Origin: an uncultured Candidatus Saccharibacteria bacterium
Lineage (GTDB): Bacteria; Patescibacteriota; Dojkabacteria; B142; JAFGMG01
Direction: 5' to 3'
Assembly (NCBI GenBank): GCA_964391325.1
Contig: CAYMJM010000004.1
Location: 1-60,083, forward strand
DNA length: 60,083 bases
Every line of letters starts with the position of its first letter. Positions within the stretch are counted from its first letter, which is position 1. Both the position numbers and the translations under genes were made by a program. The notes below the pieces were generated by a model that had not been told where the DNA came from, did not search any database, and saw only the letters and a list, made by a program, of their open reading frames with translations. This document shows positions 18,337 through 19,503 of this stretch, piece by piece.

Positions 18337-19095
18337 TTGACTGCTCCTATGATGAAGAATGCTTCACACAGCATAGATGTTACAGTGCCGCAACAGGCAA
18401 AGAGGAACCTAATCTCGAGAATTGGTATTAAAAATATCGTTTTAGTACTCCTAATAGTGGGCTTAACCATAACCACTATTCTACTCTACCTGATGTACAC
18501 AAATTTAAAAGACGAAACTGATCCAAATCAAAAAGACTTCAATACTGTAACTACAAATGTAAAAAAACTGATAAATATCGAGGAAGATGAAAAAATCAAT
18601 GTAGCAAGAATAGATAATGTCGATACCCTCAGACAGGAGAATGCAAATTTCTACAAAAATGCAGCAAATGGGCAATATTTAGTTGTACTCCCCAAATCTC
18701 AAAGAGTTATTATCTATGATAAAGCAACAAACAGAATAGTTAATTTCTCCACGTATTCTATCAAAGTAGACGTGATTCCTGAGGATCAAATAGATACTGC
18801 TGAAAAACCACTTACAGTAGAAATCAGATATGCGATGAACGTTACGGAACAAACAGTAGAAAATGTTAAAAATGCATTAGAATCAGCTAGTCAAAACTAT
18901 GAAGTAATAGCGACCACACAGACTGATAATGACCTTGAAGGGTTAACTGTAACACTTCTAAACAGACAGGAAAAACCCAAAATGTCTCAAAATCTTATAG
19001 CGCATAGCGGCACAAATTCCATTACAGAAAACCTGCCGGATGGGGAAGCTCCATCAGATGCTGACGCTGTTATATTATTAGGTTCTACTAATTAA
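18337..19095 (+). CDS. Single-TM protein: CPR 'FY.NA.NG' domain plus LytR_C-like C-terminal domain
   Basis: One TM; EKINVARIDNVDTLRQENANFYKNAANGQYLVV..VIIYD; C-terminal LTVEIRY..DADAVILLGS. Confidence 0.75.
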   Translation: MTAPMMKNASHSIDVTVPQQAKRNLISRIGIKNIVLVLLIVGLTITTILLYLMYTNLKDETDPNQKDFNTVTTNVKKLINIEEDEKINVARIDNVDTLRQENANFYKNAANGQYLVVLPKSQRVIIYDKATNRIVNFSTYSIKVDVIPEDQIDTAEKPLTVEIRYAMNVTEQTVENVKNALESASQNYEVIATTQTDNDLEGLTVTLLNRQEKPKMSQNLIAHSGTNSITENLPDGEAPSDADAVILLGSTN

Positions 19096-19106
19096 AAAAA
19101 AGTTGT

Positions 19107-19139
19107 AACATAAAGGGCGCCTTCGGCGCCCTTTATGTT
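19107..19139. terminator. Bidirectional intrinsic terminator between convergent genes
   Basis: Perfect 15-bp inverted repeat AACATAAAGGGCGCC-TTC-GGCGCCCTTTATGTT with A/T-rich flanks. Confidence 0.88.
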
Positions 19140-19158
19140 TGTCCTGACACTATTATAA

Positions 19159-19503
19159 CTATTCGTTAGATTCTTGTATGGTCCTTGCTCTATTTACTAC
19201 AGTTACGCTCACAATAAGATCTTCTGACTCTCTATAGATCACAACTTTATCTGAATAAGCCAAAACTTTGTCTCCATTACGTGCATTCTGATAAAACGCT
19301 GGGTTACTATCTTGTAATTGTTCGATATCTTGAATCTCCGCAATAGTAGGCTCCTCCGAGGAAACTAAAATATGTCTTCCAACCTTCTCTTTTATATCAT
19401 CTGGCTCCTTCTTTTCCACTCTTAAGTCATTTAATAAAATAACATTAAGCCCGATGGAAAATAAAAGGAATACCCCAAAAATAATAGTAACTAGTTTACT
19501 CAT
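19159..19503 (-). CDS. Small single-TM protein, paralog of the 18337 N-terminal domain
   Basis: One TM; EEPTIAEIQDIEQLQDSNPAFYQNARNGDKVLAY..VVIYR; starts 1 bp after the giant gene's stop. Confidence 0.8.
   Translation of the reverse strand: MSKLVTIIFGVFLLFSIGLNVILLNDLRVEKKEPDDIKEKVGRHILVSSEEPTIAEIQDIEQLQDSNPAFYQNARNGDKVLAYSDKVVIYRESEDLIVSVTVVNRARTIQESNE

Follow-up and report, generated by a model that had tools for sequence, protein, structure and literature searches.

Our analysis of a 60,083-nucleotide window (the whole stretch of DNA analysed, positions 1 to 60,083 of contig CAYMJM010000004.1 in assembly GCA_964391325.1, from an uncultured Candidatus Saccharibacteria bacterium placed by GTDB in the Dojkabacteria) identifies two small convergent genes, here called A and B, that lie at the 3′ end of a giant fibre gene and have in common a small domain, here called S. 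We establish that the S domain defines a new, very large and undescribed family of type-II membrane-anchored proteins with a predicted extracytoplasmic topology, and we argue from the linkage of S genes to one family of modular, phage-like fibres across the Patescibacteria that fibre and small S protein probably constitute a two-part surface system. The pairing of the two is frequent and facultative, not obligate.

The preliminary description of the window, made from its letters alone, had proposed that A and B share a domain of about 70 amino acids (aa); the domain is real, extends over some 60–75 aa and carries a motif that fits the family consensus. In BLASTP the two proteins align with E=8e-8 and 29 % identity over about 100 aa, the transmembrane (TM) helix being included along with the domain, and word-based searches recovered 8–9 relatives for each of them, one named as a Dojkabacteria hypothetical protein. 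We define the S family by the alignments A1, A3 and A4. The hidden Markov model of the family (A1, 13 sequences) scores A at 3.1e-53 and B at 8.2e-36, values that are partly a product of construction since both proteins are rows of A1, and it matches 6,909 clusters at 50 % identity, 6,059 of them at E<=1e-10, with family lengths of 130–290 aa among the 150 best-scoring clusters. The consensus reads EEPT.ATV.D.EKLK.Q.FF..A.NGDKVLIY...KKAILY.P..NKII.V.P, in which the Glu before β1 and the Phe of the FF/FY loop are invariant (E50 and F70 in B, E81 and F101 in A), while an Ala, a Leu, the Gly of NGD and the Tyr of IY are further conserved residues (A55, L63, G77 and Y90 in B; A86, L94, G108 and Y123 in A). 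Within the organism's own 967-kb genome the family is represented by A and B only, besides a marginal match (E=1e-5) on contig C5.

AlphaFold2 (AF2) models of A and B (pLDDT 91.6 and 85.3, respectively) have an identical order of elements, namely a TM helix, a linker helix and a β-α-β-β-β unit. Because the N-terminal side of the TM helix is rich in Lys and Arg, most clearly in A, we infer an N-in/C-out topology that would place the S domain on the outside. Scans of A, B and their relatives found no Pfam, NCBIfam or PHROG model for the S domain, none of the clusters of ten family representatives is named, and Foldseek searches with the B model against the PDB and BFVD yielded no significant analogue and nothing better than E=0.09. 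Homology to phage proteins was not found either: A, B and P0010 have no PHROG match, P0008 has a marginal Rz-like spanin match in that database (E=0.008), tblastn with a typical S member gave no match in 50,697 phage records, and the viral fold models of BFVD contain no significant S match. Two apparent likenesses were rejected, that of the B model to PTB domains (Foldseek prob <=0.35) and that of the family profile to bulb-type lectins in the PDB (NGDKVVIY against DGNLVLY, E=0.001), which covers 20 residues only and was judged a coincidence of hairpin motifs. In one 225-aa member (G114, L052:9662-10339) a single TM helix is followed by two S domains in tandem.

Linkage to fibres was assessed in 151 evenly drawn Patescibacteria genomes searched with A1, 35 of which carry the S family in 1–3 copies each; the first filter of this search is loose and some absences may be missed detections. 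Neighbourhoods of ±10 kb around 40 hits outside the own genome were set against 40 control regions (20 kb each) taken from these same genomes and against the whole own genome, genes being called by a simple longest-open-reading-frame procedure. Neighbour families were obtained by clustering every protein encoded up to four genes away from an S gene. An immediate neighbour of at least 800 aa accompanies 17 of 38 S genes as against 17 of 341 size-matched small control genes (Fisher p=1.9e-10). Co-location with giant surface genes, named beforehand in the preliminary description as the test on which its proposal might be refuted, was found: a neighbour of at least 1500 aa adjoins 5/38 S genes and 0/341 controls (Fisher p=8e-6). 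The enrichment, however, follows one fibre family and not size itself, the homology among the large neighbours residing in three modules, an N-terminal domain, an intramolecular-chaperone (IMC) domain and a terminal beta domain (CTD). These modular phage-like fibres form the dominant neighbour family (25/46 loci) and occur at 21 of the 38 unbiased loci but at none of the 40 control loci (800 kb of control DNA; Fisher p=5e-9); at the same BLAST threshold the family matches, in the own genome, the 2664-aa gene only. The next most common neighbours are LamG proteins, at 4 loci.

The arrangement is also directional. Of the 25 linked loci, 14 have S directly downstream of the fibre gene and on its strand, at distances that range from a 1-nt overlap to 179 bp, and 3 more have one gene in between. 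The CTD is the module most often present in the fibres directly upstream of S, ending 10/14 of them, and an IMC domain or CTD lies within 10 kb at 14/40 S loci as against 0/40 control loci (once in the own genome). Where a genome has both S and IMC, the two are within 10 kb of each other in 13 of 22 cases, about 1 being expected (binomial p=4e-12). Linked and unlinked genes intermingle throughout the tree of S domains (15 label changes, where shuffles give 13.3) and come from many taxonomic families, so that this is not a single inherited synteny block. That the adjacency is an accident of gene order within the Dojkabacteria is the least probable of the explanations considered here; it could be entertained above all for A, whose orthologues adjoin rpmE, rpmB and SpoU methylase genes, but all four members of the A clade keep a fibre-family gene within 10 kb, and the enrichment, which spans many families and genera, contradicts it in the comparison with controls. 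A and B themselves are paralogues, as first described, but old ones: they fall in different, old clades of the S tree and did not arise by local duplication.

The fibre family ranges from 684 to more than 3300 aa and has a common layout: a conserved N-terminal domain is followed by variable repeats, a gp12-like IMC domain, a coiled coil and an end domain that resembles H-lectins. In the fibre of the window an N-terminal signal with a cleavable-looking site (between VSA and VS) precedes the N-terminal module, which has the motif (I/E)(N/K)FQG(K/R). No LPXTG motif was found in the protein, and a crude scan found no long hydrophobic stretch; the own genome has at least five sortases. Since the signal peptide looks cleavable and LPXTG is lacking despite these sortases, the fibre needs some other means of retention.

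The IMC domain (about 140 aa) has the consensus GADLAE.Y..GDVVSL..GVVS..PG...PVAL.GRVPVKV..NG.I..GDYLT.S..PGVAMKAT. The best PDB match of its profile, A2, is the C-terminal autochaperone fragment of phi29 gp12 (3gqh_A), a weak match (E=0.0064) that begins at chain residue 1 (DFAEYFE against DLAEiYe, the Glu being invariant in A2); in the fibre of the window the start of this fragment aligns with the DLAEEY motif at D2313. The C-terminal 400 aa of that fibre match phrog_19602, ‘tail fiber protein’ (1e-9), and neither the full protein nor these 400 aa match Pfam PF11962 (Peptidase_G2). The motifs D-x-A-E-Y, G-x-V-x-L and GV(I/V)S can be aligned with phi29 gp12 (MEROPS G2/Pfam Peptidase_G2), whereas the fibre domain lies below Pfam detection, is followed by 220 aa instead of standing at the extreme C-terminus, and is present in 2–3 copies in relatives. 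In gp12 the D-x-A-E motif lies at the cleavage site, its residues having the roles reportedly assigned to them by Xiang and colleagues in 2009; self-cleavage of the IMC domain, predicted between F2312 and D2313, would be expected to release 352 aa. Two or three IMC copies occur within one fibre in L051 (1873 aa), L032 (2757 aa), L098, L103, L106, L110 and L112, which is hard to square with a single terminal self-cleaving chaperone; such fibres may be polyproteins, or the IMC domain may serve as an uncleaved trimerization knot. Many Patescibacteria genomes also encode proteins of about 260–310 aa that consist of little beyond an IMC-like domain (for example L045:3491-4414, 307 aa, and L021:10956-11735, 259 aa), some of them within 10 kb of an S gene.

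For the CTD, sub-threshold H_lectin (PF09458) matches were obtained in 8 of 10 aligned members (best 1.6e-4); the CTD of the fibre in the window has no H_lectin match, and the CTD profile found no match in the PDB. A role for S as a regulator or mask of the fibre tip, binding this lectin-like end so as to stop self-agglutination or keep the fibre inactive until host contact, would suit both the H-lectin likeness and the position of S after CTD-bearing fibres. We nevertheless consider it highly improbable, as the proposal is conjecture throughout, the CTD at hand is among those that H_lectin does not match, and some S-linked fibres (L023, L033, L038, L039) have no CTD.

At the locus itself (Table 1) the initial observation that B starts 1 bp after the stop codon of the giant gene is borne out: the TAA occupies 19507–19505 and the ATG 19503–19501, leaving one spacer base (TAAtATG), and in the closest relative (L004) the fibre and B genes overlap by 1 base. 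The hairpin between A and B has a perfect 15-bp stem (dG -27.3 kcal/mol, z -6.45). When all 60 kb were scanned for perfect stems (7 bp or longer) with a T-run behind them, it was the sole strong site, the other match being a weak 7-bp site inside the fibre gene, in agreement with the earlier statement that the window has one classical, perfect terminator. The long T-run lies on the minus strand, that of fibre and B, and on the plus strand the GC core is followed by nothing but TTTATGTT of the outer stem. B is probably the promoter-distal gene of the fibre operon and translationally coupled to the fibre. The open reading frame of A can be extended upstream from its recorded start (ATG, 18349) to a TTG at 18337, which would give 252 aa.

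Table 1. Positions in the window of genes A and B, the shared terminator, the fibre gene and their domains
Feature	Position	Strand	Remarks
Gene A, long-form S-family protein	18349..19095	+	248 aa; P0013; start MMKNAS
Architecture of A	18349..19095	+	TM helix, linker helix, S domain, LytR_C-like domain
A, N-terminal TM helix	18427..18516	+	aa 27-56; helix in AF2 model
A, S domain	18574..18759	+	aa ~76-137; small β-α-β-β-β unit common to B
A, divergent LytR_C-like domain	18805..19086	+	aa ~153-246; β-α-β-β-α-β; by fold, homologues and profile
Hairpin terminator shared by convergent A and B	19107..19139	.	GC core GGGCGCC
Gene B, short-form S-family protein	19159..19503	-	114 aa
Architecture of B	19159..19503	-	TM helix aa 3-27, linker helix, S domain aa ~45-104
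Exported modular fibre, partner gene of A/B	19505..27499	-	2664 aa
Fibre, phi29-gp12-like IMC domain	20162..20629	-	aa ~2291-2445
Fibre, terminal beta domain (CTD)	19508..19786	-	aa 2572-2664; ~95 aa

The C-terminal half of A is confirmed as a divergent LytR_C domain by the family profile, with supporting evidence from the fold. A LytR_C domain had been assigned to A in the preliminary description; a Pfam scan of A itself gives no LytR_C match even at E<=10, but 34 of the 55 long-form homologues aligned with A match PF13399 (best 8.6e-16), the family profile aligns over the full domain with the solved C-terminal domain of Rv0431/VirR (2m5y, E=2.8e-4), and the same structure is the top Foldseek match of the A model (prob 0.91, TMt 0.50, with a non-significant E=0.05). 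LytR_C is an envelope-associated interaction domain; VirR, a LytR_C solo protein that acts in envelope integrity, binds LCP enzymes through it, and in both VirR and Cei it is the sole recognised domain (PMC11832169). A resembles these two proteins in combining a TM anchor with an extracytoplasmic LytR_C and no LCP catalytic domain, whereas the S domain, the portion that A and B have in common and that is linked to fibres, seems to be missing from VirR and Cei, and B is without LytR_C. The own genome encodes two LCP enzymes, one with a canonical LytR_C, and a whole-genome scan with PF13399 gave a match at 2959–3225 in an LCP protein as its sole hit. This enzyme (2959–3933, minus strand, 434-aa frame) lies 15 kb from gene A and, by analogy with VirR–Lcp1, is a candidate partner for the LytR_C of A.

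Given these resemblances, S proteins might serve general envelope homeostasis, S and LytR_C remodelling the wall in the manner of the mycobacterial VirR and Cei without binding the fibre; S genes would be located or regulated together with fibre genes because a fibre of such size must cross the wall. Such a role would account for the LytR_C of A and of many family members, it has a precedent in the interaction of VirR with LCP proteins via LytR_C (PMC11832169), and it accords with the facultative pairing (about 40 % of S genes lie away from fibres), with the β-lactamase-like serine hydrolase found beside the fibre in five loci and with the presence of A in three metatranscriptomes. We judge it distinctly unlikely all the same. 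Short forms, which have no LytR_C, are also linked to fibres (IMC or CTD within 10 kb in 7/25 short and 7/13 long forms), the tight position downstream on the same strand, with gaps of 1–25 nt, is more typical of subunits or partners, and no other envelope gene family recurs near S.

The arrangement is a new variation on a known theme, that of a trimeric fibre adhesin with a small accessory protein of the envelope. Phage tail-fibre assembly proteins (Tfa, T4 gp38) are encoded by a small gene directly downstream of the fibre gene and act on the C-terminal tip of the fibre. S genes resemble them in being small and placed just 3′ of a phage-tail-fibre-like gene; Tfa and gp38 are soluble and cytoplasmic, however, whereas S proteins are TM-anchored and predicted to face outward, and have no match in PHROG, the phage database or the viral folds. 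In Acinetobacter, TpgA has a small α/β N-domain, which binds the trimeric adhesin AtaA in an A3B3 complex, and a second domain that binds peptidoglycan (PMC12523085). A is built in a comparable way, from a small α/β domain (S) and a wall-associated domain (LytR_C). On the other hand, TpgA is periplasmic in diderms and binds the outer-membrane barrel of its adhesin, while S is TM-anchored in what is presumably a single-membrane cell; AtaA is a trimeric autotransporter adhesin, while the fibre here is phage-like with an IMC domain. The folds differ as well (α-α-β-β-β in TpgA/BamE, β-α-β-β-β in S), a TpgA/BamE-like adaptor fold being absent from the Foldseek PDB matches of B (best E=0.3) and no sequence match having been found. 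A third parallel is SadB of Salmonella, an extracytoplasmic helper anchored in the inner membrane, which shares one operon with the trimeric adhesin SadA and aids its display (PMC3953254). SadB is a lipoprotein with a MATH-like fold, whereas S proteins have a TM anchor and an unrelated small fold. The S gene also lies mostly downstream of its fibre, while SadB is encoded upstream of SadA.

We favour, tentatively and at a little short of an even chance, the explanation that S works on the envelope side as an adaptor or anchor of the fibre, comparable in this to TpgA or SadB. The S domain would be kept on the outer side of the cytoplasmic membrane and there dock the trimeric fibre, most plausibly through its conserved C-terminal module, which would be the last part to leave the Sec channel; the TM helix would tie the complex to the membrane and, in A, LytR_C would link it to the wall or to LCP enzymes. 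The analysis shows homology, predicted fold, gene order and linkage, and that the genes are present in RNA libraries; the topology, any contact between S and fibre and the choice of module are inferred. A more far-reaching version, possible but on the doubtful side, would make S the cell-side socket of an attachment organelle specific to Patescibacteria, in which membrane-anchored S trimers, those of the long form tethered to the wall by LytR_C, would hold phage-derived, lectin-tipped fibres at the epibiont surface, so that a swappable fibre gene beside a constant S gene might act as a cassette for changing host specificity.

Alternatively, S may be a transient assembly factor, modelled on SadB for SadA or on the phage tail-fibre assembly proteins: tethered to the membrane, it would capture the C-termini of three fibre chains at the Sec exit, promote nucleation of the trimer and then leave, staying outside the finished structure. 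We hold this to be unlikely, though a serious contender. The position of S directly after the fibre gene, with possible translational coupling, and the predominance of CTD and IMC in the fibres upstream of S would both fit such a factor, SadB offers a precedent as an inner-membrane-anchored helper within a trimeric-adhesin operon (PMC3953254), and the role would survive self-cleavage of the IMC domain. Yet the fibre already has an intramolecular chaperone of its own, most fibres with IMC or CTD manage without S, S has no phage homologues, and the LytR_C of the long forms would be left unexplained.

Several findings weigh against S as a permanent adaptor. No S is detectable in 37 of the 59 genomes that bear IMC, and an S gene is missing from all 20 fibre loci that were sampled away from detected S genes, six of which lie in genomes with S elsewhere; a permissive hmmsearch of these 20 loci for divergent S (--max, E<=1) returned marginal noise only. 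Conversely, no fibre lies within 10 kb of about 40 % of the S genes. Fibres with and without a linked S show no visible N-terminal difference (signal versus anchor), and the S domain has no structural analogue in the PDB or BFVD (Foldseek) that would suggest a mode of binding. Moreover, if the IMC domain cleaves itself as in phi29, the CTD as docking module would be cut off and permanent anchoring through it would fail. The first two of these counts, together with the S genes that lack a fibre, speak against the term ‘dedicated’ used of A and B in the preliminary description; its broader notion of fibre plus accessory protein as a system holds at the level of gene linkage and across many families of the phylum, although the pairing is not obligate.

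Other genes accompany some of these loci. In the window, 145 bp upstream of the fibre gene and on the same strand, lies a gene for a 966-aa LamG protein with four LamG/Laminin_G_3 units (27645–30545, minus strand), and LamG homologues adjoin S genes or fibres in L004, L007 (1660 aa) and L024 (1747 aa); the LamG protein may be a third, occasional member of the cassette. In five loci (L016:10301-11290, L019:13308-14303, L032:8588-9694, L093:10949-12010 and L035:2621-3580) a TM-anchored protein of 320–370 aa is encoded beside the fibre, in three of the five between fibre and S. By eye, this protein has motifs of class-A β-lactamases/DD-peptidases (S-L-L-K, SDN, HKFGER), and it may be a wall-remodelling component of some cassettes. 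Farther away in the window, 11578–14176 (plus strand) encodes a small protein bearing a dockerin-type motif and, after it, a 675-aa protein that has CarboxypepD_reg/prealbumin-like domains; this pair of surface-protein genes is found in synteny in the close relative L004.

Metagenomes from landfill, sludge and digesters commonly contain the organism. Gene A is covered by contigs from three metatranscriptomes, and part of B by a contig from one; a fourth run, of uncertain RNA status, has one contig (19165–19535) that spans the junction of B and fibre and another that crosses the hairpin. These contigs are unstranded, may include DNA carry-over and indicate presence in RNA libraries and nothing more. 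The gene for ribosomal protein L31 (17918–18274, plus strand) is uncovered in the three metatranscriptomes that cover its neighbour A, which is unexpected for a ribosomal gene and may be an artefact of contig assembly at low depth. At position 18627, in gene A, all four runs have A instead of C; the change (ACC to ACA, Thr) is synonymous, which points to a strain variant and not to editing.

Finally, Patescibacteria (the Candidate Phyla Radiation) are mostly obligate epibionts whose attachment to their hosts is largely unknown, and giant surface proteins, obvious candidates for attachment, are too variable to be studied as a family. The S domain, by contrast, is compact, conserved and confidently modelled, with about 6,900 clusters that are absent from Pfam, NCBIfam and PHROGs, and together with its statistically solid linkage to one fibre family it provides a handle for finding fibre loci in metagenomes. 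As a small soluble domain it is suited to binding and structural studies, and it is a new partner domain for LytR_C, whose own role is poorly understood. Together with the fibre family described here, S offers a hypothesis for how a fibre that is exported by Sec and independent of sortase may be assembled or held on the cell.

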